Origin: a virus
Lineage: Duplodnaviria; Heunggongvirae; Uroviricota; Caudoviricetes
DNA length: 64,000 bases
Reading direction: 5' to 3' (one strand)
IMG/VR virus record: IMGVR_UViG_3300005836_000011
Span: 1-64,000 of that record
The stretch's first letter is position 1, and each line of letters begins with the position of its first letter. Made by a program: the position numbers and the translations under genes. The notes beneath the pieces were generated by a model. It was given only the letters and a program-made list of their open reading frames with translations. It made no database searches and was not told the origin of the DNA. Positions 2,395 through 56,706 of the stretch are shown here, one piece after another.

Positions 2395-2967
2395 ATGAAG
2401 AGATTCGTTCTCTATCTCATTGCTGCATTTTTGCTTGTACCCGCCATTGCGCTCGCTGGCGGAAGCTCTGCAACTCAGAACGTCTGCTTCACAGATGTCA
2501 CAGGACCACCGATCGAAGGTAACGGAAGCGATAACAACAACGGCCACACTCACAACGTCACGCTCTGCGGAGACGTTCCCGTCGGTGAGCAAGGCCCTGC
2601 TGGTCCCCAGGGACCCGCTGGTCCTGCTGGTCCCGCCGGCCCTGCTGGTGCAGCTTCAACGGTTCCCGGACCCGCCGGTCCCGCAGGCCCTAAAGGCGAC
2701 ACCGGTCCCGCCGGTCCCGCTGGTAGTGGCGTAGCTGGTCCCGCAGGTCCCGCTGGACCACAGGGTATTCCTGGTCCCCAAGGCCCGCAGGGTCCCGCTG
2801 GACTAGCTGGTGTCTCGCGCACCATCACGAGAACGGTGAAGCTAAAGCCGACAATCATCATCAAGCGCTACACGAAGGTGATTGTGAAGAAGGTGTACAT
2901 CTATGGGTGCCCGAAGGGGTACACAACCGATCCGAGCGGTAAGTGTCAGCCGCAGGGAAGCGGCTAA
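2395..2967 (+). CDS. secreted collagen-like (Gly-X-Y) repeat protein
   Basis: N-terminal signal-peptide-like [23 protein letters not shown], about 80 residues of [13 protein letters not shown] repeats, and a Cys-containing C-terminus. Confidence 0.7.
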
Positions 2968-8884: not shown

Positions 8885-9055
8885 TGCGCTGTAATGCTCA
8901 GGTGCGTGCCCACGCGCTTACTCTTCGCTCCTGGCATAGTGAGGACGAAACGCCTCAGTGTCTTCGTCCTGCCAAGTACTGGGGCTACTGCTATCAGCAT
9001 TGGGCTGAACTTAGGCCACATCAGAGAGTTCTAACCCGGATTCTGGCGATACCCG

Positions 9056-33078: not shown

Positions 33079-33789
33079 TTACGGTCGAGCAAAGGCCAAT
33101 CCGCTCCAGGAGAAATAACCACCGGGTGTGAACGCTCGAGCCGTTGTGGTGAGACCGAGATCGAAACGAAATCCTCTCTCCTCTATGACTGGTATCCAAT
33201 AGTCATCTGTCTGGCAATTCACATGGTGATGTCCACCTTGACCAGGAACGGCATGGGTCATCAGGAGCAGTCGGCCCCGCTGGAAGGCGGTGAGATAATT
33301 CTCCATGAACTCGTGCGCGACGTGCTCGACGAACTCGCAGCACCAGACGAGGTCGAAATCACGACCTGGGTCGTAGGGGCCAAGCGTGAAGTCATGTTGT
33401 TGAATCAGCGGGTCATGCGGTGGCAGCCCATCCACTCCATATGCCTCACATCCCAGACTCTTGAAGAAATGCACAGTCTTTCCCGCTCCGCATCCAACGT
33501 CGAGGATTGATCTGACATCACAGGTGTCTCGGAGCCACGTCCACAACTCGGGGTAGTAGCTCAGCGGATCCCCGTCGGGAAAATAGCCCCCGAGCCAAGG
33601 TCGTTCCGAGTCCACAACCTGTCCGTACTCAGAGAGCTCGCTCATGCCGAGAAAACGCCGTAGAACGCCCGACCGGATGCACCGCTTTCGTCGATCTGCG
33701 CCACGAATCCGGAAGAGCCGAGCCATTCCTCTAGCTCGTCCTTGACGAGCATGTGCGGGTGACCTGGATATGGAGGGATGTCGATCCAC
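33079..33789 (-). CDS. class I SAM-dependent methyltransferase
   Basis: Motif I ILDVGCGAGKTVHFF. Real start probably MSELSEYG at about 33645. Confidence 0.6.
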   Translation of the reverse strand: MDRHPSISRSPAHARQGRARGMARLFRIRGADRRKRCIRSGVLRRFLGMSELSEYGQVVDSERPWLGGYFPDGDPLSYYPELWTWLRDTCDVRSILDVGCGAGKTVHFFKSLGCEAYGVDGLPPHDPLIQQHDFTLGPYDPGRDFDLVWCCEFVEHVAHEFMENYLTAFQRGRLLLMTHAVPGQGGHHHVNCQTDDYWIPVIEERGFRFDLGLTTTARAFTPGGYFSWSGLAFARP

Positions 33790-34304: not shown

Positions 34305-35435
34305 TTATGCGGACCAACCTTCCCCCCAAAGAGTGTCGAGCTGGTCGAACCAGCGTGTAAACTTTTTCCCGACCGCGTCGAAGCCGTAGCGGTCGATCGC
34401 AGCCTTGCGAATCTTCTTGCGGTCCAGAGTCTCGGCGTACTCGACTGCGGCCACGGCCTGACTCAAGGTACTGAAGCGAGCGCCCACGTCGGGGGTGACG
34501 ATCTCGGTGAATGATCCCCAGTCGCTCGCTACCACAGGGGTTCCGCTCATCATCGCCTCGACCGCGACGCCTCCGAATGGCTCAACGTAGAGCGTCGGAA
34601 CGATTACCGCCGCTGCGTCGGCCATGAGATCGGCGCGATCGGCGAAGCGCACCTCACCAACGTATTCGATCCCCGGCGCCCTGAGAGATACCTCGGGAGC
34701 ATTGATCTCACCCTTCTTCCAAGTTGAGGGACCTGGTCCAGCGACGAGCAGGCGCCTCCCCATGCGCTCGGCGATCGCTGCAGCTACCTGCGGCCCCTTG
34801 CGCAGCACCACGCGACCGATGTAGAGCAGGTAGTCATCGCTCTTTTTGCGCTTGCGCTTCGCAGGGTCATGAAACTGTGTCTGGTCGAAGAAGTTGGGGA
34901 TGACAGAATCGAAGGCCCGCCCGTTGCGAATCTCGCGCATCCCGTAGACGTGGTGCATCCAGGCGTAGCTCTCGAAGGCGCAGAAGGGAGAGAAGATTCC
35001 TTCGTACCCGACTGCCCACTCGACGGTGATCGGATTGATGAACCCAGGGCCACCGATCGCATGAGCGATGGGATGATGCGCCCAGCCAGCGGTAACGCAG
35101 AGATAGTCGCGTGGCTGCACGCGCTCGCGGAGTGCGTCAATCGCCCTAGTGTTCGCCTCGAAGAAGTACGGCTCAGAGGGGAGCCATAGGAACGGACTTC
35201 GTACCGTATCGAAGCCATCCCCAAAGCCCCAGCGATCGCGATCTGCCTTTGTCGTGATGACGACGTGTTCATCAGGCTCGCAGGCGATCTCGTCAGGTCC
35301 ATAGAGGATGACCTTGCAGCCCTGCGCCTGCATCATCGGTACGAACTTCAGAACTTTCATCGAGTACGCGCATGAAGAATCTTTCTCGGTTAGCGTCGTG
35401 TGTGGCAATGCCACAACATGGAGAACGCGAGTCAC
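34305..35435 (-). CDS. GT-B fold glycosyltransferase (GT4/GT1 family)
   Basis: VIVPTLYVEPFGGVAVEAMMSGTPVV is the E-x7-E donor-binding signature of retaining GT4 enzymes. Confidence 0.7.
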   Translation of the reverse strand: MTRVLHVVALPHTTLTEKDSSCAYSMKVLKFVPMMQAQGCKVILYGPDEIACEPDEHVVITTKADRDRWGFGDGFDTVRSPFLWLPSEPYFFEANTRAIDALRERVQPRDYLCVTAGWAHHPIAHAIGGPGFINPITVEWAVGYEGIFSPFCAFESYAWMHHVYGMREIRNGRAFDSVIPNFFDQTQFHDPAKRKRKKSDDYLLYIGRVVLRKGPQVAAAIAERMGRRLLVAGPGPSTWKKGEINAPEVSLRAPGIEYVGEVRFADRADLMADAAAVIVPTLYVEPFGGVAVEAMMSGTPVVASDWGSFTEIVTPDVGARFSTLSQAVAAVEYAETLDRKKIRKAAIDRYGFDAVGKKFTRWFDQLDTLWGEGWSA

Positions 35436-36130: not shown

Positions 36131-36673
36131 TCATTGCCACTCCTCCACTGGGCATGTGATCCCTGAGAGAATACTCTCTCGATCAGCCTCGTATCCATTC
36201 GCGTACTTTCCATTATGCCACTCGATGAGGATCTGCGAGAATCTATCCATGAGGCCGTTCTCGATCAGATGAGGAAGGAGCACATATTCGGCTCCCTCGA
36301 TGTCGACCTTGAGCACGATCCGAGCCTCGGGCAGAGTCCTGACCCAGGCGGAGAAATCGAAGGCCTTGGTCCGTTCTTTCTCGTCGAAGTCGACATGAGT
36401 ACAGTTGCCTTGCAGACAGAGGCCGACCTCAATGTCATCCGTCCAAGCAGCCCTCCGAGCAGTGATGACGGTGGTTCCGAAGACACTGCCGACGGCATCC
36501 GGCAAGCCTGGGTGAGGATCAAAGCCAAAGAGGACGGTCGGTGAGAAGCGCTTGATCAGTGTTTGGATTGAGTCCTCTAGCCGATTTCCTCGCTGATAAC
36601 TACAGCAACCGAGGTCGATGACAATGTCGGTCTCGAGCGACGAGACTGAGTGAACGGCGAGCGCGTTACTCAT
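36131..36673 (-). CDS. FkbM-family methyltransferase
   Basis: IVIDLGCCSY...KVDIEGAEYVLL is diagnostic of the FkbM family. Confidence 0.6.
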   Translation of the reverse strand: MSNALAVHSVSSLETDIVIDLGCCSYQRGNRLEDSIQTLIKRFSPTVLFGFDPHPGLPDAVGSVFGTTVITARRAAWTDDIEVGLCLQGNCTHVDFDEKERTKAFDFSAWVRTLPEARIVLKVDIEGAEYVLLPHLIENGLMDRFSQILIEWHNGKYANGYEADRESILSGITCPVEEWQ

Positions 36674-37260
36674 TGCATCATCTTGTCGTGCTCTGGCAAG
36701 TGACTCGGAGGACCCTGTGGCCCTTTCTTCTTCGCGCGGTGCCGAGCTTGGTACTCACGCATCTTCTCACGGCGGCGGATCTGCTGTTCGGTGAGTCCTT
36801 CGGTGCTGTATCGCGAGTGTCGGCCACAGGTGCATCCTGGGGAGCAGGGCTTCGTGCCTCCGAGTCCCTGGGGTGAAGGCTCTGGACGTTCGTCGAACTT
36901 CTCTCTCGCTATCAGATATTGCTCGCGCTTCGGATCGCAGAGCCAGGGCCAGAGAAGATCAAAAAGAGTATCCACAGCCTTCCCGGAGACCTGATAACTC
37001 CACTGAGGATTCTGGGAGAGCAGATTCTTTGTCGGGATGTATGGACCGTAGATCTTGCCGACCCCCACCGCGCGAACGAAGCGATCAAGAGGTTCTCGCC
37101 TGTTCTGATTCACGCTGGCTCGCAAGTAGATATCGCTGGCTACGCGCTTCCTGCCGTCGTTCTTTCCGTAGCACCCACAGGAGCCTTCTCCGTCCCAGAA
37201 TCCCGCGGCCCAAGCAAGCTCCTCACGATGATATGCCGCCTGTGCGCGTTCATCACCCAC
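36670..37260 (-). CDS. LAGLIDADG-family homing endonuclease, free-standing paralog
   Basis: REELAWAAGFWDGEGSC, LDRFVRAVGVGKIY and QWSYQVSGKAVDTLFDLLWPWL are colinear with the 17226 gene. Confidence 0.65.
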   Translation of the reverse strand: MGDERAQAAYHREELAWAAGFWDGEGSCGCYGKNDGRKRVASDIYLRASVNQNRREPLDRFVRAVGVGKIYGPYIPTKNLLSQNPQWSYQVSGKAVDTLFDLLWPWLCDPKREQYLIAREKFDERPEPSPQGLGGTKPCSPGCTCGRHSRYSTEGLTEQQIRRREKMREYQARHRAKKKGPQGPPSHLPEHDKMMQ

Positions 37261-37633: not shown

Positions 37634-38365
37634 TTATTTCACCTCCTGCATCATCTCGCGGTTCAGTTCCTTTAGCTCGTCATCGAGTTCGACGAGATTG
37701 ATGTCTTCTCCGATCGCGTTACGAATCGAGCCATGCGGATAGACCACCATCGTCTTGTGATGGCCGGGGTTGCAGGCAGGGACGAGGATGGGCGTATAGC
37801 CCGCCTCGCGCGCGCGCCAGGAGAAGGAGAGGTCTTCGCCAGTTGAGCGCTCGTCATTGACGGGCCAAAATGCTCCTGGCCCAATCTCCTCGAACACCTC
37901 TCGATGGACAAGCGTAAAGCCCATTCCAACAACGCCGACCTCAATAGGCTTTTCTGGCAACTGCACAAGATTGTGGTAGACCATCGGCTCGTCGTCGTTC
38001 CAAACTCCCACGACCTGGAATCCGTTCTCGAGGACATACGTTCCCGCATACACGCCAGGTCCGCGCTTTGCAGCTTCGTCATAGAGCGCAAAAACGTCTG
38101 CTGGCGTGAAGACCATGTCGTTGTCGACGGAGAGCAGCCATTCACGACCGGTGTCCATGAACTGGTTCTGCAGCTGATTGCGGTTGGCGTGGATATAGGG
38201 GCCAAAGACCAATAGCCAATCTGAGTTGAACCGATTGTTCGGATCGTTCTTGAACAGGTTGAGCACCGAGTGCATGAACCAGAAGTTCACGCTGGGACCT
38301 GTGATGAAGCCGAGGATGGAGTCGGGTTGATTCATGGCGCGGAGTGTAGGGCTTGTCTCGGTCAT
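37634..38365 (-). CDS. GT-A fold glycosyltransferase (GT2-like)
   Basis: LLSVDNDMVF DxD-type motif. Confidence 0.5.
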   Translation of the reverse strand: MTETSPTLRAMNQPDSILGFITGPSVNFWFMHSVLNLFKNDPNNRFNSDWLLVFGPYIHANRNQLQNQFMDTGREWLLSVDNDMVFTPADVFALYDEAAKRGPGVYAGTYVLENGFQVVGVWNDDEPMVYHNLVQLPEKPIEVGVVGMGFTLVHREVFEEIGPGAFWPVNDERSTGEDLSFSWRAREAGYTPILVPACNPGHHKTMVVYPHGSIRNAIGEDINLVELDDELKELNREMMQEVK

Positions 38366-39729
38366 TACAGGCCCACTGCCCTTCGCATGCTACTGATCAA
38401 GCACATCGAGAGACCGGGCGCGAGCCTAGGCCGCCTCTCGCTCCACCACTCGCGCACCCACTTCATCAGCACGCCCGGATCGTTGAAGTTCACGAACCCC
38501 TGCTCCAGCACCAGCACCGTCGCGACGTACTCGGTCACTGACTCGGTCAACGTGATCCACGAGTCGCCAGCCGCGCTCGCGCTCGTACCGTTGTAGGAGA
38601 AGCGCAAGGTCTGCCCGGTGACCACCGCGCCGAAGCCGTCGTCATAGAACACACGAAGCCTCAACCGTTGACCATCGGTAACCGACACATCTGGCCCGAG
38701 GATCTGAAGTTGCCAGGTGGAGGTATCGGTGATCGTCAACTCGTTAGAACCTGCGGTTGTATCAAAGGCCATCGTGCACACCCCGAACAACGTCGCACCA
38801 CTGCCGTCGTTGTTCACGACGTGCAACTCGGCGTGCAACTTGGCGTGCACTGTAGTCGTGCAATAGGCGCGCAGATTTACAAGTACGACCCCTGAGAGTG
38901 TGAAGGCGTTGAGTTGCCGCGAGTACCACTCGATTGCGGTGCCGCCACTCGTCCACTGCGTCGGACTGACCGGCCCAGCCGCGCTCGTCATCGTGGCTTC
39001 GACCGAACCGGAGCCGCGACTCGTCCACATCTCCTTCTCTAGGTTCGCCCCGACATCTGGCCCGGCCGTGTCGGTCAGGAACATCTGCGTTCCGGCGGGA
39101 TCGCTCGTCACGACGGAGAACGTTTCGTTGAACTGGATGTAGGTGTCGCCGTCAGCCGCCGCAGTCGGTCCGTTCGTGTCCACTGTGAAGGTGAACCCGG
39201 TCCCCATCGTGGTCGAGTCGTCTCCGTAGATCCTCAGTCGGATACGGTCGCCCTTCTTCATATCCGTCGAAGTAGGCGTGACCGTGAAGTTCTGAACGGC
39301 TACCGACGTTCCCAACTCGGTCGTCCTCGCTGTCTGCGCGATAGTGCTCCTGGCAAGGGTCGTGCCGTCGATCCTTTCGATGATCGCGTTGATCGCGACG
39401 TTCGCGCTCATGTTGCTCTCAAGGGCCCAGAAGTTGAGCGTGATCGTTCCCGAGATGGTCACGTCCGCGGCCAGCGGATCGCTCACCCAGTCAACGCTTC
39501 CGACCTCGATCCCGTTCGTTGGCCCCGCGACGGTGTTGGACGTTTCGGCTTGCTTGGTCCACGTCCCGGTCGGCGACCCCTGTTGATTCAGCCGTCTCGG
39601 TCCAGACCAGTAGAGCGATGTGCCTGCGAGAGTGTTGCTCGGTGTCAGATGTACGCCGCCCTTTATGCACGCCGCCCCAGATGAAAGAGCGACACCGGGA
39701 TCGGTCACAGGATAGAAGCGGGTCGCCAT
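38365..39729 (-). CDS. protein with tandemly duplicated beta-sandwich-like domain
   Basis: Internal repeat: RIRLRIYGDD...FTFTVDTNG...AAADGDTYIQFNETFS versus RLRLRVFYDDGF...LRFSYNGTSASAAGDSWITLTESV. Confidence 0.5.
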   Translation of the reverse strand: MATRFYPVTDPGVALSSGAACIKGGVHLTPSNTLAGTSLYWSGPRRLNQQGSPTGTWTKQAETSNTVAGPTNGIEVGSVDWVSDPLAADVTISGTITLNFWALESNMSANVAINAIIERIDGTTLARSTIAQTARTTELGTSVAVQNFTVTPTSTDMKKGDRIRLRIYGDDSTTMGTGFTFTVDTNGPTAAADGDTYIQFNETFSVVTSDPAGTQMFLTDTAGPDVGANLEKEMWTSRGSGSVEATMTSAAGPVSPTQWTSGGTAIEWYSRQLNAFTLSGVVLVNLRAYCTTTVHAKLHAELHVVNNDGSGATLFGVCTMAFDTTAGSNELTITDTSTWQLQILGPDVSVTDGQRLRLRVFYDDGFGAVVTGQTLRFSYNGTSASAAGDSWITLTESVTEYVATVLVLEQGFVNFNDPGVLMKWVREWWSERRPRLAPGLSMCLISSMRRAVGL

Positions 39730-39953: not shown

Positions 39954-40385
39954 TCATCCCGTGAAACTCACCACATTGGAGTCGGGGCGCGTGTAGTCGC
40001 CCGCCCCGCTCGGCTGGTAGACCCATGCTGAGCAGGCGACCCCAGGTCGCGCGAGGGCGGTGAGGAACGTCGGCACCGTCTGCCCGAAGTAGGGTGAGAG
40101 TGGGTCGGTGACGATCAAGCTGGTGACCCAGCCCGTGTCGCCCACGGTGGAGAATCCCTCGCAGCGCACGACGACCTGCGCGAGCCACCAGATATTCTGA
40201 CGCCGGTTTGACCGCTGCACCTCGACGGTCACGGTGTCGTAGGGCGAATCCGTCGCCACGCTTGCCACACGAACGGTGAACCCGTTGTCGTTGCCCTTCG
40301 CGGTCGCGCCCGCACTCAGGACGAGCCCCGCTACGAGCACGGCGGCCAGCGACGCAATCCTGCTCATCACTGCCTCCTTAGACAT
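39954..40385 (-). CDS. secreted protein (signal peptide)
   Basis: [23 protein letters not shown] looks like a signal peptide. Confidence 0.45.
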
Positions 40386-43300
40386 TCTTCCTCGTATAGT
40401 TGATCATCACGCCAATCAGCATCGCATCTGCCGCAAGCGTGTCAGAGCCGTCGGCAGGTACGCGCTTCACACGAATGAACACCGTTTCGCTGGCTGCGGG
40501 AGTTCCGCCAACCGTGATCGCGGGAGTGGATGCGCTTTGGAACTGGAGCAACGTCGTACCCGCGGTCGGTGTATCCGCGATCTGCTGCGCTGTGCCATAG
40601 GCGGAGGCCGTATCTGTGCCATCGCCCAGAGCGACCGCCTCCAACGCCCAGACAACCCCGCTCGTACTCGTGCCCACGCGCGTCCAGTCAAACTGCGCGG
40701 TGATCGTTCCACCATCCCAGTCCGACGGCATCCGCAGAGTTGCACAAGCGAACTCCTGTGTCGTCTGGTCGAAGTCGAGCGTGTAGTAGTTGTGGCTGCT
40801 CGTTCCAGCGACATTCTTGTTCTGAGCAGCGCCGTTGGTCGTCGCTGGCACCATGCCCGAAGCGGTGAGATAGAGCTGCCCCGCAGGTGCCGGGCCACGC
40901 TGCCCATCAAGGCCGTGGATGCCCTCTGGCCCGGTCGCACCTGTCGCGCCGGCTCCTGTCGCTCCCGAGACTCCCGTTGCCCCGGTAGCACCCGAGATGC
41001 CGGTCGCGCCTGTTGCGCCAGAGATACCCGTCGGCCCGGTTGCTCCCCTGTCGCCAGACGGCCCCTCCAGACCATCGAGTCCCTGTGCTCCTGTTGCACC
41101 ACTGATTCCGGTTGCGCCAGTTGCGCCCGATATGCCGGTCGGCCCAGTTGCGCCCGAGACACCCGTGGCCCCCGTCGCCCCACTGACGCCGGTGGCGCCC
41201 GTTGCTCCTGAGACACCCCTATCTCCCGACGCACCCTCCAGGCCGTCGAGGCCCTGCGGCCCAGTGGCTCCGCTGATGCCAGTAGCTCCAGTTGCGCCAG
41301 ATACGCCGGTAGCCCCGGTAGCACCAGAAACGCCCGTGGCGCCAGTGGCCCCCGACACCCCGGTGGCGCCCGTGGCGCCAGAGATGCCGGTTGCACCTGT
41401 CGCTCCGCTGACGCCCGTTGCCCCAGTCGTTCCCCGATCTCCCGAGCGACCTTCGAGACCGTCGAGACCCTGTGGGCCGGTTGCTCCACTGATTCCCGTA
41501 GCGCCGGTAGCTCCGCTCACTCCGGTAGCGCCAGTAGCGCCTGAAACTCCGGTTGCCCCAGTAGCGCCCGAAACACCGGTTGCACCAGTGGCGCCCGAGA
41601 CTCCGGTGGCTCCAGTAGCCCCGGAGACACCAGTGGCGCCAGTGGCACCCGACACCCCAGTTGCTCCCGTCGCGCCAGACACACCGGTCGTACCAGGCGA
41701 TCCATCGAGTCCGTCAATCCCCTGCGGGCCCGTCGCTCCCGAGACGCCCGTGGCACCAGTCGCACCGGATACACCAGTTGCTCCCGTCGCGCCAGACACA
41801 CCTGTGGCTCCAGTCGCGCCAGAGACCCCGGTCGCGCCCGTTGCGCCAGAAACGCCTGTCGCTCCAGTCGCGCCAGAAACGCCCGTCGCCCCCGTCACAC
41901 CCTTGTCGCCGGAAGCTCCCTCGAGACCATCGAGACCCTGGGGACCCGTCGCACCGGATACGCCTGTCGCGCCAGTAGCGCCGGAGACCCCAGTAGCGCC
42001 GGTTGCTCCACTGACTCCGGTAGCACCAGTGGCACCGGATATGCCTGTTGCACCCGTTGCTCCAGAGACGCCCGTCGCTCCAGTAGCACCGGATACACCA
42101 GTGGCCCCCGTAGCGCCCGAGATGCCTGTGGCACCTGTGACTCCCCTATCTCCTGATGCTCCCTCCAGTCCATCCAGCCCCTGCGATCCAGTAGCACCAC
42201 TTATTCCTGTGGCACCAGTTGCCCCGGATATTCCGGTTGCGCCAGTGGCTCCGCTGATGCCTGTTGCGCCTGTCGCGCCAGAGATACCCGTTGCTCCGGT
42301 GGCTCCTGAAATACCTGTGGCACCCGTAGCTCCACTAACTCCTGTGGCACCCGTTGCTCCTGAAACACCCGTAGCTCCCGTAGCCCCTGTGACGCCCTTG
42401 TCTCCCGATGGCCCCTCCAGCCCATCGAGGCCCTGCGCGCCGGTTGCGCCGGATATGCCAGTCGCGCCCGTTGCTCCTGATATTCCCGTGGCACCAGTTG
42501 CACCAGATACCCCGGTTGCCCCCGTAGCTCCGGAGACACCCGTGGCACCAGTAGCACCGGAAACACCGGTTGCCCCAGTGGCACCACTGATTCCTGTGGC
42601 ACCAGTGGCCCCTGAAACTCCAGTCGCTCCTGTGACTCCCTTGTCTCCAGAGGCCCCTTCTAGGCCATCGAGACCCTGTGGGCCGGTAGCGCCCGACACA
42701 CCAGTTGCACCCGTAGCCCCACTGATTCCCGTGGCTCCTGTCGCCCCGGAAACTCCGGTAGCGCCTGTGGCTCCCGAAACCCCGGTTGCGCCAGTTGCTC
42801 CGGATACCCCCGTAGCACCAGTTGCGCCCGATACTCCGGTCGGGCCTGCCGCTCCGGATATCCCAGCACTTCCATCAAGCCCATCCAACCCTTGCGGCCC
42901 AGTAGCCCCCGACACTCCAGTAGATCCGGTCGCTCCCGAAACCCCGGTTGCGCCTGTTGCCCCAGAAACTCCGGTTGCTCCGGTAGCGCCGGATACTCCA
43001 GTCGCACCCGTTGCTCCTGAAACTCCCGTAGCGCCTGTTGCACCCGATACGCCAGTTGCTCCAGTTGCTCCGCTGACTCCTGTAGCCCCCGTTGCTCCGC
43101 TGGCACCAGTTTGGCCCTGAGAACCATCAAGCCCAGGGATGGCCTCTGGACCAGTCGCACCAGAAATCCCTGTTGCTCCGGTAGCTCCAGAGATACCTGT
43201 TGCGCCGGTAGCACCGCTAACTCCGGTTGCTCCAGTTGCACCCGAAACTCCGGTTGCTCCAGTGGCGCCGCTTATACCTGTCGCTCCGGTAGCCCCACTT

Positions 43301-45180
43301 ACTCCGGTTGCCCCCGTGACCCCCTTATCACCCGAAGCGCCTTCCAGGCCATCGAGTCCTTGCGGGCCGGTTGCTCCACTAATCCCAGTCGCTCCAGTCG
43401 CACCTGATACACCCGTAGCTCCCGTAGCGCCCGAAACACCAGTAGCTCCAGTTGCACCGGATACGCCAGTCGCGCCAGTAGCGCCGCTGACACCTGTTGC
43501 TCCTGTAGCGCCGGAGACCCCGGTAGCGCCCGTGGCTCCTGAAATGCCTGTCGCGCCAGTAGCGCCTGAGATACCTGTCGGCCCCTGCCCTCCATCAATG
43601 CCATCGAGGCCAGCCGGCCCAGTTGCCCCACTGATTCCGGTTGCTCCGGTGTTTCCTCCCCCAGGACCAGTCTGGCCCGTGGGACCCGTGGCACCCGTGG
43701 CGCCTGACCCGGTGGCACCGATGCCTCCGTCAACGCCATCCAGTCCGGCGGGGCCAGTCGCTCCACTAACGCCCGTGGAGCCTGTCGCTCCCGAAACCCC
43801 CGTCGCCCCGGTGGCTCCGGAAATCCCAGTAGCTCCAGTTACACCCTTGTCGCCCGAAGGTCCATCGAGGCCATCGAGTCCTTGAGGACCAGTGGCTCCC
43901 GAAACCCCGGTAGACCCGGTAGCCCCAGAAATCCCTGTGGCTCCAGTGGCTCCGGAAATGCCCGTGGCGCCTGTCGCGCCCGACACTCCGGTCGCACCTG
44001 TTGCACCCGAGACACCTGTGGCACCTGTAGCTCCGGAGACTCCTGATCCGGTCGCGCCCGTCCCTCCAACAGCGCCATCAATTCCGTCAGTCCCCTGTGG
44101 GCCGGTCGCACCGCTTGATCCTGTGGCGCCAGATACACCAGTCGCTCCTGTTGCTCCGGAAACTCCCGTAGCGCCCGTCGCTCCGCTGACACCAGTTGCC
44201 CCAGCACCCGTAGCGCCAGTCGCTCCCGAGCTCCCGGTAGCACCCGAGACACCTGTCGCGCCTGTCGCGCCCGTGACGCCAGCGCCTGTCGGCCCAGTCG
44301 GGCCGTCTGCGCCAGATGCGCCATCGGATCCTGTGGCACCCGTATTGCCCTGCGCTCCCGCCGAGATCGGCGTCAGCACCGACGACGTGTTCACCGAACC
44401 CATGTAGTACGTCGTGAGGTCGGTAGAGCCGCCGCCCGAGTCCTTGACCGCGTAGAGCTTGACTACAAGCAGGTCGTCTACGAGAAGCGCTATTGGAGCC
44501 GCTTGCGAGTACGTCCAGATTGCAGACTGAACCAGCGTGTTATCGATCTCTCCCGAGTCCGACGTAAAGAGCAGCGTCTCGCCACCGCCAGCCGCGCGCT
44601 TGTAGACCTCGGCGCGCAGGTAGACAACGCCGATTGCGCTGTCCACGTCGGCGCTAATCGAGAAGCGCCAGAGGCCGACGGGAATCTCCTCGATGGCCGG
44701 TACGCCAACGATGGTCGAGAACTCCTCGATGAGAACCGGGCTCGTTCCGGTCGTGACGCCGGCGATGATCGTGTCCTCGGCATCTGCCGATGGAAACTTC
44801 CGCGCCTGTCCATACCCGCCTATCGTCGGGTGAGCCGTCGTCCATAGCCAGAATCTCGCCCCAGCCTCACCTGCTGGCCCAGTCGGACCGGTTGCGCCCG
44901 TCGCGCCAGTGACTCCGTCCGTTCCGATCGTGCCGGAAGGGCCAGTAGCGCCAGTCGCACCCGAAGGGCCACCAGCAGGGCCCGTGGCGCCCGTTGCTCC
45001 AGTCTGTCCTGCGCCCGATCCTCCGGCAGGAGGATCAACGTACTCGTGAATCCAGCCACCAGGGAAGCCAGGCTCGCCCAGTACCGCCGGGCGGGTCTGG
45101 AGCATCTTCTGGTCGCCGATGGCCGAGTCATCGACGTCAAGAAGCCTGCGAAGGAAACGTATTACGCGAACAGCGGCCAT
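40378..45180 (-). CDS. giant collagen-like triple-helix repeat protein (1600 aa), putative virion fibre
   Basis: About 1150 residues of uninterrupted Gly-X-Y ([13 protein letters not shown]..., punctuated by [19 protein letters not shown]). N-terminal 250-aa and C-terminal 230-aa non-collagen domains. Confidence 0.85.
40880..44350. repeat. nested tandem repeats (9/27-nt and about 300-nt units) encoding the Gly-X-Y region
   Basis: Repeats are visible at both nucleotide and protein level. The antisense strand carries spurious Pro/Ala/Val ORFs. Confidence 0.8.
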
Positions 45181-45260
45181 AGTGACCTCCGCAGCTCGGC
45201 ACCGCCCTCACTCACGAGGGCAGTGCCGTGGCCTAGCGGTAAACCTCCGAAGAGTTCAAA

Positions 45261-48742: not shown

Positions 48743-48754
48743 CTAGGAACCTAG
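48743..48754 (+). promoter_or_regulatory. CTAGGAACCTAG 12-mer copy
   Basis: Exact copy 125 bp upstream of the capsid start. Overlaps the stop of the 48751 gene. Confidence 0.5.
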
Positions 48755-49287
48755 ACAGCCGTCCAGTCAAGTTCGAGCGGATCAGAATCACCAATGTAAT
48801 TAAACGCGCGCCTTCGTTTGTTTTCTGTTCCGCTCGGAACATTGGAACCTTCGCTCCACTTCACGGAAAGTGTGTCGTCGGGATGCTCGACGATTGAAGG
48901 AACCGTTGCGAGCACGGTTTGACGAGTAAATTTCATCCACGATCCCACAACAGCATCATCAGATCGTGGATTCGGCAAACCCGGAAGCTTTGCGTCCTTC
49001 GACCACTCAAGAAATTCCTCAACCTTTGCGCGCGGCCAGAGAACGGCAACGACGGGAAGAAAGTCCTGAAACCAGATCGTGGAGTAACGATTGCCGTTGC
49101 GCGCAGCTTTCATATAGTGCTTCAGCGTCTTCGTTCTCGTGGCGCTTACGAACAGGCATACCGGAACATCTGGATGAACTTCAGCAATGACCTCTATCGC
49201 GGCAGCGAAGTTCTGACAGACGACGGCGTCGTCTTGGATGACGACCGCGTGCGAGTCCGATGTCTCGAGGGCTGTCTGTAAACACAA
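48751..49287 (-). CDS. putative glycosyltransferase-like protein
   Basis: VVIQDDAVVC acidic motif. Low-confidence call. Confidence 0.3.
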   Translation of the reverse strand: MCLQTALETSDSHAVVIQDDAVVCQNFAAAIEVIAEVHPDVPVCLFVSATRTKTLKHYMKAARNGNRYSTIWFQDFLPVVAVLWPRAKVEEFLEWSKDAKLPGLPNPRSDDAVVGSWMKFTRQTVLATVPSIVEHPDDTLSVKWSEGSNVPSGTENKRRRAFNYIGDSDPLELDWTAV

Positions 49288-55304: not shown

Positions 55305-55909
55305 GCCAAAACATCCGCGCGCGCAATCTCATATGCCTTCATGTACTCAGGGTGATCGCGTTGCAGCACATGATGCTTGGACTCCTCATTGTAGTGAGCC
55401 ACATAAATCGCTTTTGGCACCTTCACAATACGCGCTCCTGCGCGTACGCAGCGTGCCCAGTAGTTCCAGTCCTCGAGTCCATGTGGATGTTCACGAAACC
55501 CTCCAATCTTTCGATGCAATGCAGCCGGAACAACAGTTCCAATGATAAGCCAGTTGCCTGTTTCAAATGAGCATTCCGGGAAGAAGAACGCACGTCTCGA
55601 TTTTCCTCTCCGTATCTGTTGTACCGCCGGCGTTAGAAGAAGCGATCCACCCCCTTCTCGCTCGCTCGCTCGCTCTATAGCCTCCACAAACCCAGGAGCT
55701 AGTTCATCGTCAGCGTCGAGAAAACAGAGCCAGTCTCCTTTTGCTTTTGCAGCAAGTTCGTTCCGCGCAGAAGCAATCGTTCCATTGGGATCATGACCAA
55801 CAAGAATCTCTTCACAGGTAAAATTAATCACCGAGCGGAGCGCGCGCCGTCGAGCAAGTTTCTCCCAGTCTTCACTACCATAGGTTGCAATCAAAATCGA
55901 GAGCTTCAT
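55301..55909 (-). CDS. GT2-family glycosyltransferase
   Basis: ILIATYGSE...LCFLDADDEL. Confidence 0.65.
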   Translation of the reverse strand: MKLSILIATYGSEDWEKLARRRALRSVINFTCEEILVGHDPNGTIASARNELAAKAKGDWLCFLDADDELAPGFVEAIERASEREGGGSLLLTPAVQQIRRGKSRRAFFFPECSFETGNWLIIGTVVPAALHRKIGGFREHPHGLEDWNYWARCVRAGARIVKVPKAIYVAHYNEESKHHVLQRDHPEYMKAYEIARADVLA

Positions 55910-56706
55910 TTCTTCCTCTTTCTATTTCTATATTGAAAGAGCGCTTTGCGTCTCTCTTCTCGCATCGCAGCACGTTCAGCAATAACCGCTTCCCTGCGTG
56001 CCTTGCGATCAAGCTGAGTTCCTGAGCGCATACGCTTCAGATACAAATGTCCATCCGAACCTGTAGCCCGAAGAGCCTTCTCATACGTTGCATCTAATTT
56101 CGATTTATTCCAATTCGGATGAAGATGCTCTACTTTGGAGCGTTTCGAGAATGCCCATTGACCACGCCTGATCGCAGTCTGAACGAACTCATTGTCTACA
56201 AACTGATGGTCATAGAGTTCGCAGAAAACGAGGCCAGTGTTGTCGATTGTACCGCCGTACTGATTGATATAGGTACGACGGATGAGTGAGTGGGTAGAGT
56301 GACCGCCACGCTTCACGAGGGCATTACCCATATCGTCGGTTCCCACGACACCGACCTCGCGCCTATCCCCCAGCTTAATGGCATAAACATCCCAACCTGG
56401 ATGGAAGCGAAGATCGTCGGCAGCCTGAAAGACCCAAGGAGCATCTGTCTGTGGGAAGGCCCAATTAATCTTGCGCGCAAAATCCGCCTTTCCCGGTTGC
56501 CAGTTGGTGATCAGCGTTGTGGCGTCAGCTGCGCGACAAGTCTTGATCTGTTCCTTGTCCGAGGGTGAGCAGATAAAGAAGACGCGATATGAATGTGACG
56601 TTACCTTGACCGACTCCATGAATGGATGAACGTTCTGGGGACGTGCTAGAACCGGAACCAGGATGTCGATGTCACTCATAAGCTCGAGAGGTGAAACCCT
56701 GAGCAC
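55906..56706 (-). CDS. glycosyltransferase-like protein
   Basis: ORF track. Operon context with two GT2 genes. Acidic motifs YDHQFVDNEF. Confidence 0.4.
   Translation of the reverse strand: MLRVSPLELMSDIDILVPVLARPQNVHPFMESVKVTSHSYRVFFICSPSDKEQIKTCRAADATTLITNWQPGKADFARKINWAFPQTDAPWVFQAADDLRFHPGWDVYAIKLGDRREVGVVGTDDMGNALVKRGGHSTHSLIRRTYINQYGGTIDNTGLVFCELYDHQFVDNEFVQTAIRRGQWAFSKRSKVEHLHPNWNKSKLDATYEKALRATGSDGHLYLKRMRSGTQLDRKARREAVIAERAAMREERRKALFQYRNRKRKK

Follow-up and report, generated by a model that had tools for sequence, protein, structure and literature searches.

Results

A collagen-like gene in the virion module

The window, that is the whole 64,000-nt stretch of phage DNA analysed here, carries a contiguous virion module on its minus strand, in the order terminase, portal, MuF-like protein, capsid protein (phrog_777), phrog_792, phrog_779, fibre gene and, further on, head-tail adaptor and tape measure (Table 1). 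The fibre gene lies two genes downstream of the major capsid gene; one intervening gene, phrog_792, is a tail-tube homologue annotated as the major tail protein in cultured actinophages. The 1600-aa collagen-like protein predicted from this ORF is real: a ribosome-binding site precedes it, it holds 401 Gly-X-Y triplets (counted in runs of at least 3), and Pfam Collagen (PF01391; gathering cut-off 27.2 bits) matched both a 318-aa piece of the stalk, aa 683-1000 (172 bits, E=2e-51), and aa 58-108 (29.5 bits, E=6e-7). So is a second, small secreted collagen-like protein proposed at 2395-2967. By inspecting the sequence of the fibre, we found no hydrophobic signal peptide at its N-terminus.

The spacer of ~80-91 nt that separates the fibre gene from the phrog_779 gene is predicted to fold strongly (MFE -43.9 kcal/mol, z = -4.06). 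Its hairpin has no T-run and was not called by a terminator scan. This hairpin recurs in the closest relative (L211), where it differs by two compensatory pair changes, and is absent from the more distant L009 and L215. It is possibly an attenuator or an mRNA-stability element.

Table 1. Features of the fibre locus (window positions; aa, residues of the fibre protein)
Feature	Position	Strand	Extent	Basis or type
Complete fibre gene	40378..45180	-	1600 codons + stop	ORF list, triplet count, Pfam Collagen
Shine-Dalgarno GGAGG	45186..45190	-	5 nt 5' of fibre ATG	read from sequence
G+C-rich hairpin	45197..45228	-	13 bp	spacer between phrog_779 gene and fibre gene
N-terminal anchor	45010..45180	-	aa 1-57	conserved in at least 11 syntenic fibres (alignment A4)
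Proximal collagen segment	44854..45009	-	aa 58-109, 5 + 12 triplets	triplet runs, Pfam Collagen
Globular insert	44359..44853	-	aa 110-274	beta-jelly-roll, CocE/NonD / PepX_C C-terminal-domain type
Main collagen stalk	40888..44358	-	aa 275-1431, 1157 aa, 381 triplets	
Longest unbroken Gly-X-Y run	40948..43134	-	aa 683-1411, 243 triplets	
C-terminal head	40381..40887	-	aa 1432-1600, 169 aa	beta-sandwich, CBM6/35/36 (galactose-binding-like) type
Glycosyltransferase phrog_3408	34305..35435	-		PHROG E=2e-51; GT1-type in relatives

A long, proline-poor stalk

The protein is built, from its N-terminus, of an anchor, a short collagen segment, a PepX_C-like insert, the stalk and a C-terminal beta-sandwich. 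The main stalk has the roughly 380 triplets counted originally, yet it is not uninterrupted as was then thought, since seven register breaks divide it and the longest perfect run comprises 243 triplets. To call it one of the longest in a phage ORF is fair, but it holds no record: runs of at least 243 triplets occur in 4 of the 120 IMG/VR stretches listed with at least 65 unbroken triplets, and a 3193-aa protein (L172) with the same C-terminal domain has 723 triplets. Nonameric repeat units occur 75 times along the stalk, and 15 charged punctuation motifs are spaced by 45-84 aa, mostly 72-84. At the textbook collagen rise of 0.286 nm per residue, the stalk would measure about 331 nm (~0.33 micrometres) if it forms a triple helix.

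Glycine makes up 34% of the stalk, threonine and alanine 18% each, serine 10%, proline 2.3% and charged residues ~5%. In the longest run, X is Ala in 53% of triplets, and Y is Thr in 54% and Ser in 29% (Thr/Ser 83%). Because proline and charge, the usual stabilisers of bacterial collagens (PMC8968730), are this scarce, the stability of an unmodified stalk is uncertain.

Repetitive protein, randomised DNA

Repetitive genes are a known assembly hazard, and gene callers do split the orthologs (204-253-aa calls for ORFs of 616-1652 aa). We therefore considered whether the long repeat is an artefact or inflated by assembly, or the ORF no real gene, and judge this extremely improbable. The nested DNA tandem repeats noted originally are detected by TRF, but they are weak, with 60-88% matches, and the longest exact repeat in the gene is 29 bp. 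Among 27-nt units with the same encoded peptide, identity is 73.6%, and random synonymous choice would give 72.9 +/- 0.5%. In addition, a 4959-nt ortholog was recovered at the same length and with 1 mismatch in two independent metagenome assemblies, orthologs of 1570-1922 aa are found on several IMG/VR contigs, and the window frame, which has an RBS and conserved termini, stays open over 4.8 kb. Together, the short exact repeats, the units at random-synonymous identity and the agreeing ortholog assemblies make a collapse unlikely, contrary to the earlier expectation. A proneness to copy-number change, also expected, is seen over evolutionary time, since fibres of the clade span 440 to 1922 aa, but the gene bears no sign of recent slippage.

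A CBM-like head, an optional insert and a conserved anchor

The C-terminal domain comprises ~169 aa rather than the 230 aa first proposed. It passed the test for a galactose-binding-like beta-sandwich fold, and the match to CBM-like folds was rated confident, at sequence identities of 8-13% and with such folds being generic beta-sandwiches. A C1q/TNF-like head, one of the two options raised originally, was rejected by the fold and PF00386 test, and structural comparison gave the CBM6/35/36 type instead. No Pfam family, CBM included, matched the head at E<=0.01, nor did any PHROG family, and a profile of 89 head homologues retrieved no PDB relative. The head carries a conserved acidic/aromatic loop, MPSDWDGGT, with P66 and W80 invariant in alignment A1, which hints at a candidate binding site. 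The family, which has no Pfam entry, is present on 301 IMG/VR contigs. The same domain ends gp74 of EBPR siphovirus 2, adjoining tail genes, as well as L172 and L159, whose N-termini match PHROG tail-fibre families.

The N-terminal globular domain of the original prediction exists, but as an insert behind the 57-aa anchor and 17 collagen triplets. It passed the jelly-roll fold test for a CocE/NonD C-terminal domain, and PF08530 (PepX_C) matched neither the insert nor 25 of its homologues. This family, too, lacks a Pfam entry and counts 1355 representatives at 50% clustering. Since one ortholog does without it, the insert is an optional second module. One homologue of the insert (P0096) sits on a contig (L219) whose gene content looked giant-virus- or eukaryote-like.

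The anchor, presumed to be a virion-attachment peptide, matched no Pfam or PHROG family and gave no tblastn match in GenBank phages. An anchor-collagen-head gene occupies the same slot in at least 12 related metagenomic phages, and the same anchor bears other, unrelated heads in P0095 and L211/L212. Aligned with the L003 ortholog, the stalk is 86-89% identical at the amino acid level, the anchor 75% and the head 63%, and 42-64% of the codons for identical residues differ synonymously. These values show that the stalk is constrained by purifying selection and that the head evolves fastest, as would be expected of a receptor-binding tip. With a conserved N-terminal region, presumed to serve attachment, and a variable head, and encoded in a structural module, the gene product fits the architecture of a tail fibre or receptor-binding protein. 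The second of the original options for the C-terminal domain, a receptor-binding head, is thus plausible, a constant anchor, a variable stalk and heads swapped across relatives being phage-fibre architecture.

An unusual gene position and nearby glycosyltransferases

By siphovirus convention, fibre genes follow the tape measure and are grouped with the Dit/Tal tail-tip genes. Neither the window gene nor those of its syntenic relatives follow this arrangement: the former precedes the head-tail adaptor, with ~11 kb separating it from the tape measure further downstream; the latter likewise all precede the adaptor, 6-11 kb ahead of the tape measure, and none is in the block behind it. In the window this block is small (151, 416, 337 and 236 aa) and holds no long fibre gene. 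Among the relatives, fibre length does not track tape-measure length (616 with 1456, 963 with 1100 and 1600 with 1564 aa), so that no defined geometry can be argued from these lengths.

Glycosyltransferases are encoded at 37634-38365, 34305-35435, 48751-49287 and 55906-56706, and the module also contains two methyltransferase-like genes. Within +/-10 kb of the head-domain gene, homologues of the 34305..35435 enzyme accompany 13/43 collagen-bearing and 0/28 collagen-free carriers (Fisher p=0.001), and 7/29 versus 0/28 outside the syntenic clade (p=0.01), with p-values that treat carriers as independent and ignore phylogeny. The association suggests this enzyme as a candidate modifier of the Thr/Ser-rich stalk.

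Discussion

A probable long-reach adhesin

The gene product is probably a homotrimeric collagen-like fibre of the virion, which would serve as a long-reach adhesin of an uncultured siphovirus related to actinobacteriophages and bind a host surface glycan. We infer that the conserved 57-residue peptide at the N-terminus attaches the fibre to the virion and that the ~400 Gly-X-Y triplets build a thin stalk, roughly 0.33 micrometres in length. The seven register breaks would give this stalk local flexibility, and the 15 charged, Pro/Leu-containing punctuation motifs, every 72-84 residues, plausibly hold the three chains in register. The three CBM6/35/36-like heads may then bind cell-envelope polysaccharide weakly but multivalently, which would widen the capture radius and keep the virion on the cell until its small tail tip can engage a receptor of its own.

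Gene position mildly favours attachment of such a fibre to the head or neck, since the gene follows the capsid/tail-tube genes, precedes the head-tail adaptor and is distant from the tail-tip genes. Position guides only weakly here, because the tail-tube homologue phrog_792 also adjoins the capsid gene in this lineage. The original description, a candidate head or tail fibre, is retained for a collagen-like fibre of the structural module. A less probable alternative is a classical tail or side tail fibre, attached to the baseplate or distal tail, that would be the primary receptor-binding protein and happen to be encoded apart from the tail-tip genes. It agrees with the lack of any long fibre in the tail-tip module, with the occurrence of the head domain in tail-module proteins of other phages and with the collagen-type PHROG tail-fibre families that match the fibre. 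However, these matches are confined to the low-complexity Gly-X-Y regions, the anchor resembles no tail fibre, and every syntenic gene precedes the head-tail adaptor at a distance from the tape measure.

An improbable alternative, drawn by analogy with the BclA nap of Bacillus spores and with Mimivirus fibrils, is that the protein forms a "hair" on the capsid or neck with a main role other than host-receptor binding, that is a glycosylated shield or spacer, or a tether to biofilm or environmental polysaccharide. The Thr/Ser-rich Y positions resemble BclA (PMC8968730), four glycosyltransferases and two methyltransferase-like genes are at hand, a GT376 homologue is associated with those head-domain carriers that have collagen, Catovirus/Klosneuvirus collagen proteins end in a structurally similar domain (TMq 0.70-0.75), and glycosylation of actinophage virions has been documented (Freeman et al. 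2023, as cited in PMC11256854). But glycosyltransferases also occur in related modules without a collagen gene, such as that of Gordonia phage Mareelih, and their statistics do not account for phylogeny. Moreover, the swapping and fast evolution of heads on a constant anchor point to selection of the host-range type. A bolder version, which we regard as doubtful, combines several of these features: a head- or neck-anchored filament of ~0.33 micrometres whose Pro-poor Gly-Ala-Thr / Gly-Val-Ser helix would be stable only through O-glycosylation of Thr/Ser by the phage glycosyltransferases, a counterpart of the BclA nap and Mimivirus fibrils that would share its head and insert families with giant-virus collagens. 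Such a filament would be longer than the tail, which we estimate roughly at ~235 nm from a 1564-aa tape measure and an assumed 0.15 nm per residue, and would be the first glycosylated collagen described on a phage.

Comparison with known systems

For the adhesin that we favour, the nearest counterparts are the collagen-like fibres and receptor-binding proteins of lactococcal P335-type phages, S. thermophilus phages and E. coli O157 prophages (side tail fibres); CBM-type adhesion modules are also common in siphophages of Gram-positive hosts (PMC3368898, PMC7533335, PMC9692632). The window fibre shares with them a Gly-X-Y stalk, trimeric in the known ones, that links an N-terminus near the virion to an exchangeable binding domain at the C-terminus, and a stalk length that varies among relatives. 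Those fibres have tens of triplets. The window stalk is about ten times as long and Pro-poor, and its gene comes after the capsid/tail-tube genes and ahead of the head-tail adaptor instead of following the tape measure.

Accessory fibres encoded beside a capsid gene include SPP1 gp12, which is collagen-like, and phi29 gp8.5, both trimeric and proposed to aid host adhesion (PMC7602432). Unlike the window fibre, neither is known to have a CBM-like head, and we detected no sequence similarity between it and either of them. SPP1 gp12 has a few dozen residues and binds the centres of capsid hexamers; phi29 gp8.5 is a helical coil.

The BclA-type exosporium collagen glycoproteins of Bacillus and Clostridioides have collagen regions of polymorphic length (PMC8968730, PMC7157674). 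Like BclA, whose filaments project from the particle surface, the window fibre has a Gly-X-Thr-rich collagen region and glycosyltransferase genes nearby. They differ at position X, Pro in BclA (GPT) and mostly Ala here, and at the tip: BclA ends in a C1q/TNF-like trimeric head, and a trimerisation head of that kind was rejected for the CBM-like domain of the window fibre. Giant viruses (Mimiviridae, Klosneuvirinae) encode collagen-like proteins of 1000-2000 aa beside their own glycosylation enzymes (PMC9614988, PMC9546862). The C-terminal domains of Catovirus/Klosneuvirus collagens are structurally like the window head at a sequence identity of only 14-15%, and these viruses differ from the window phage in host domain and virion architecture.

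Implications

Collagen-like fibres with swappable heads are a known phage adhesion device, of which the window fibre is an extreme but not a unique case. Our analysis defines a family with a conserved anchor, fibres of 440-1922 aa, exchangeable heads and a fixed non-canonical slot in a clade of uncultured actinophage-like siphoviruses, and identifies two widespread beta-sandwich domain families without a Pfam entry, the CBM-like head and the PepX_C-like insert. It also shows that the DNA behind a highly repetitive protein can have fully randomised synonymous sites, so that such genes assemble reliably, and that long viral collagens are under-counted in protein databases because gene callers fragment their ORFs. 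Finally, a Pro-poor, charge-poor, Thr/Ser-rich collagen near glycosyltransferases offers a system in which to ask whether phages glycosylate collagen for stability, and the natural range of stalk lengths a series for the effect of fibre reach on adsorption.

Architecture of the collagen-like fibre

The fibre open reading frame contains 1600 open codons, with its ATG 5 nt 3' of a GGAGG, and encodes 401 Gly-X-Y triplets (counted in runs of at least three). A proximal segment (aa 58-109) contributes 17 of these, and the main stalk (aa 275-1431) contributes 381. A 318-aa piece of the stalk matched Pfam Collagen with 172 bits. The original prediction described this collagen-like ORF correctly except for two points: the stretch that it called uninterrupted has 7 register breaks in the main stalk, the longest perfect run being 243 triplets (aa 683-1411), and the C-terminal domain, given as 230 aa, measures about 169 aa. 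We also rejected the proposed C1q/TNF-like assignment for this domain (the head), whose fold is a CBM6/35/36-type beta-sandwich.

Nonamers, GATGSTGVS included, occur 75 times in the fibre. The stalk is composed of 34% Gly, 18% Thr, 18% Ala and 10% Ser, with only 2.3% Pro and around 5% charged residues; in the longest run, position X is Ala in 53% of cases and position Y is Thr (54%) or Ser (29%). Nearly all the Pro and charge of the stalk are held by 15 punctuation motifs, mostly spaced by 72-84 residues. Being the sole non-degenerate landmarks in an otherwise nine-residue-periodic stalk, these motifs could help to set the chain register or to nucleate folding. Antisense ORFs within the fibre gene, such as 40919-43120 (+) with its 733 aa of Pro/Val/Ala repeats, mirror the Gly-X-Y codons and are not genes. 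The fibre ORF itself is a real gene, notable for its length, module position, composition and unannotated domains.

The predicted second, small collagen-like protein was confirmed. Its N-terminus is signal-peptide-like, its repeats are Pro-rich and of the GPAGPQ type, and its C-terminal tail is rich in Lys and contains Cys. It differs considerably from the fibre in composition and is encoded on the opposite strand in the non-structural region.

Degeneracy of the repeats and rarity of the protein

The nested repeats had been considered prone to assembly collapse. In the fibre gene, TRF found only degenerate repeats (60-88% matches), and the longest exact direct repeat is 29 bp. The 50 units of 27 nt that all encode GATGATGVS have a mean identity of 73.6%, equal to the 72.9 +/- 0.5% expected from a random synonymous draw from the gene's own codon usage, which indicates equilibrium at synonymous sites; there are no signs of recent gene conversion or duplication. 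Moreover, a 1652-aa ortholog assembled independently from two JGI samples (loci L003 and L004) has an equal length in both, with 1 mismatch in 4959 nt. We therefore rejected an assembly artefact. Special codon diversification of the stalk was likewise discarded, since its codon usage mirrors that of the remaining structural genes and there is no sign of selection beyond mutational equilibrium.

By scanning IMG/VR with a threshold of at least 65 unbroken triplets, we retrieved at least 120 stretches; among the 120 listed, four have runs of at least 243 triplets and four have totals of at least 401. A protein of 3193 aa encoded at one locus (L172) combines 723 triplets with the same head, so that the window protein lies in the upper tail and is not a record. 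Gene callers split long collagen ORFs, calling only C-terminal pieces of 204-253 aa for ORFs of 616-1652 aa. Long viral collagens are thus under-represented in protein databases, and many heads are falsely listed as "stand-alone". Collagen-like phage fibres and collagen-like capsid decoration (SPP1 gp12) are already established (PMC3368898, PMC7533335, PMC7602432).

Genomic setting

With a GC content of 56%, the window is a genome of siphovirus type.

Coordinates of the features discussed, in the window unless a metagenomic locus is named
Feature	Location	Strand	Remark
Small collagen-like protein	2395-2967	+	190 aa
Tape measure	29415-24721	-	followed by four small tail-tip genes, then lysis genes (-)
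Head-tail adaptor	33019-31883	-
Methyltransferase	33079-33789	-	clear match
Glycosyltransferase	34305-35435	-	376 aa, phrog_3408
Methyltransferase-like	36131-36673	-	weak FkbM-type match
HNH endonuclease	36670-37260	-
Glycosyltransferase	37634-38365	-
454-aa protein	38365-39729	-
Signal-peptide-like protein	39954-40366	-	about 136 aa
Fibre	45180..40378	-
Hairpin	45197-45228	-	13 bp
phrog_779	46091-45261	-	next upstream of fibre
phrog_792	46773-46114	-	homologues annotated "major tail protein" in cultured actinophages
Major capsid protein	48619-46880	-	phrog_777
MuF-like protein		-	between portal and major capsid protein
Glycosyltransferase	48751-49287
Portal	53663-51882	-
Glycosyltransferase	55906-56706
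Large terminase	59019-57394	-
Fragmented collagen ORF	L003 5419-10377
Fragmented collagen ORF	L004 4724-9682
Fragmented collagen ORF	L008 7871-10762
Fragmented collagen ORF	L009 8765-10615
HNH-like endonuclease	L003 4818-5357	-	179 aa, antisense
HNH-like endonuclease	L004 4123-4662	-	179 aa, antisense
Hairpin	L211 ~8953-8984
Insert homologue P0096	L219 8001-9395

The major capsid protein begins with ~150 residues of strongly acidic, helix-like sequence (EELADLLKEHQ...EDEVEEE), and its alignment with the capsid proteins of cultured relatives starts only at about residue 150-230; a fused scaffold (delta-like) domain would fit these features. Searches with the capsid, phrog_792 and phrog_779 proteins against PDB sequences gave no informative match.

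A G+C-rich hairpin without a T-run lies in the 80-nt spacer directly 5' of the fibre Shine-Dalgarno, and the 91-nt spacer upstream of the fibre has a z of -4.06. The hairpin is also found in the closest relative (L211), with two compensatory base-pair changes, and is absent from more distant relatives. Its possible role is attenuation or stabilisation of the transcript at the passage from the abundant capsid/tail genes to the fibre gene.

At its 3' end the fibre gene adjoins the gene of a small protein whose AAGGAGG ribosome-binding site overlaps the fibre stop codon. The product has a Sec-type signal-peptide-like N-terminus, unusual for a virion module, and no match in Pfam or PHROG; the gene is absent from loci L003, L008 and L009, which have a conserved 248-264-aa gene instead. 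The following 454-aa protein shows by eye two similar beta-rich halves with the motifs GDRIRLRIYGDD and GQRLRLRVFYDD, and its stop codon overlaps the start of the next glycosyltransferase gene. Despite a weak PepX_C Pfam match, we rejected that it shares the PepX_C-like jelly-roll inserted in the fibre (aa 110-274), the hhalign probability being 2.7%.

An anchor-stalk-head family

Searching with the C-terminal domain, we collected 88 protein clusters and 301 IMG/VR contigs. In the syntenic clade (related metagenomic phages with the order capsid protein, phrog_792, phrog_779, fibre), the same slot holds the same N-terminal anchor, a collagen stalk and usually this head. Across this clade, where most fibres but not all have this anchor, the lengths are 440, 577, 616, 684, 832, 1204 and 1210 aa for the shorter members and 1307, 1570, 1572, 1600 (window), 1652 and 1922 aa for the longer ones. 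The parts vary among members: homologous protein P0095 and loci L211/L212 keep the anchor (88% identical in L211/L212) with unrelated C-terminal regions, the L003 ortholog is without the globular insert, and in L211 a different insert is found at a later point of the stalk. Compared with L003, amino-acid identity is 86-89% for the collagen, 75% for the anchor and 63% for the head, while 42-64% of the codons for identical residues differ synonymously. Purifying selection thus acts on the stalk, and the head is the fastest-evolving part. The anchor had no match in GenBank phages or PHROGs.

In L003 and L004, phrog_779 and the fibre gene are separated by an HNH-like endonuclease gene, which suggests homing-endonuclease traffic at this junction; an Endonuclease_7 gene occupies the corresponding place in a relative of homologous protein P0019.

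Outside the clade, proteins of between 190 and 3193 aa end in this head; some contain collagen and others do not, and some have N-termini matching PHROG tail-fibre families. The head is found in EBPR siphovirus 2 gp74, which adjoins tail genes, and in S-CRM01 g26, within a cluster of collagen-repeat genes; its profile had no informative match among PDB sequences. For the insert domain alone, a word-indexed homologue search gave almost nothing and an exhaustive HMMER search was needed, yielding 1355 representatives in collagen and non-collagen proteins. The domain has no Pfam entry, and a 642-kb uncultured megaphage is its only occurrence among GenBank phage records. The gene of one homologue (P0096) shares a 56-kb contig with genes of Rad50/SMC-like, lipase and GPS-domain proteins, a gene content of giant-virus- or eukaryote-like appearance.

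A megablast of 18 kb around the fibre gene against GenBank phages gave no match and, judged by sequence, the phage is without close cultured relative. The nearest ones, Actinomycetia phage DSL-LC01 and Gordonia, Arthrobacter and Microbacterium phages, have capsid proteins ~31-36% identical and keep the core order (capsid protein, phrog_779/phrog_792, adaptor, tape measure), with phrog_779 and phrog_792 reversed relative to the window. The collagen gene is absent from them. In Gordonia phage Mareelih, the occupant of the equivalent slot is a non-collagen protein of 985 aa, so the slot varies in content and is no reliable guide to function.

Possible glycosylation of the stalk

The stability of bacterial collagens normally comes from Pro at X together with charged or polar residues, and BclA is O-glycosylated (PMC8968730). 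In contrast, the window stalk has little Pro or charge and dense Thr/Ser. Virion glycosylation by phage enzymes has been documented in mycobacteriophages (Freeman et al. 2023, as cited in PMC11256854). In the window, four glycosyltransferase genes, the two methyltransferase-like genes and an HNH endonuclease gene are interspersed among the head and neck genes, giving the structural module a sizeable glycan-synthesis toolkit. Homologues of the 376-aa glycosyltransferase were found near 13 of 43 collagen-bearing and none of 28 collagen-free head-domain carriers (p=0.001, kinship ignored), and outside the syntenic clade near 7 of 29 and 0 of 28, respectively (p=0.01, kinship ignored). Glycosyltransferases also occur in related phages without collagen genes. 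These data are only suggestive of stalk glycosylation by the co-encoded enzymes.

Attachment site and proposed function

In every relative, the fibre gene lies upstream of the adaptor gene, a long way from the genes that follow the tape measure. This position mildly favours head or neck attachment, and is weak evidence because a tail-tube homologue is encoded there too. The lengths of fibre and tape measure do not scale together among relatives, an observation more in keeping with a loose "fishing line" than with a baseplate fibre under geometric coupling.

A trimeric fibre is the most economical reading. The collagen triple helix rises 0.286 nm per residue, and the 1157 residues of the stalk would thus span ~331 nm. 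The N-terminal peptide would dock the fibre on the virion, with the stalk as a long and thin spacer that can hinge locally. At the C-terminus, the three CBM-like domains would bind a cell-envelope glycan with avidity, and the particle would thereby make a first, reversible contact ahead of commitment by the small tail tip.
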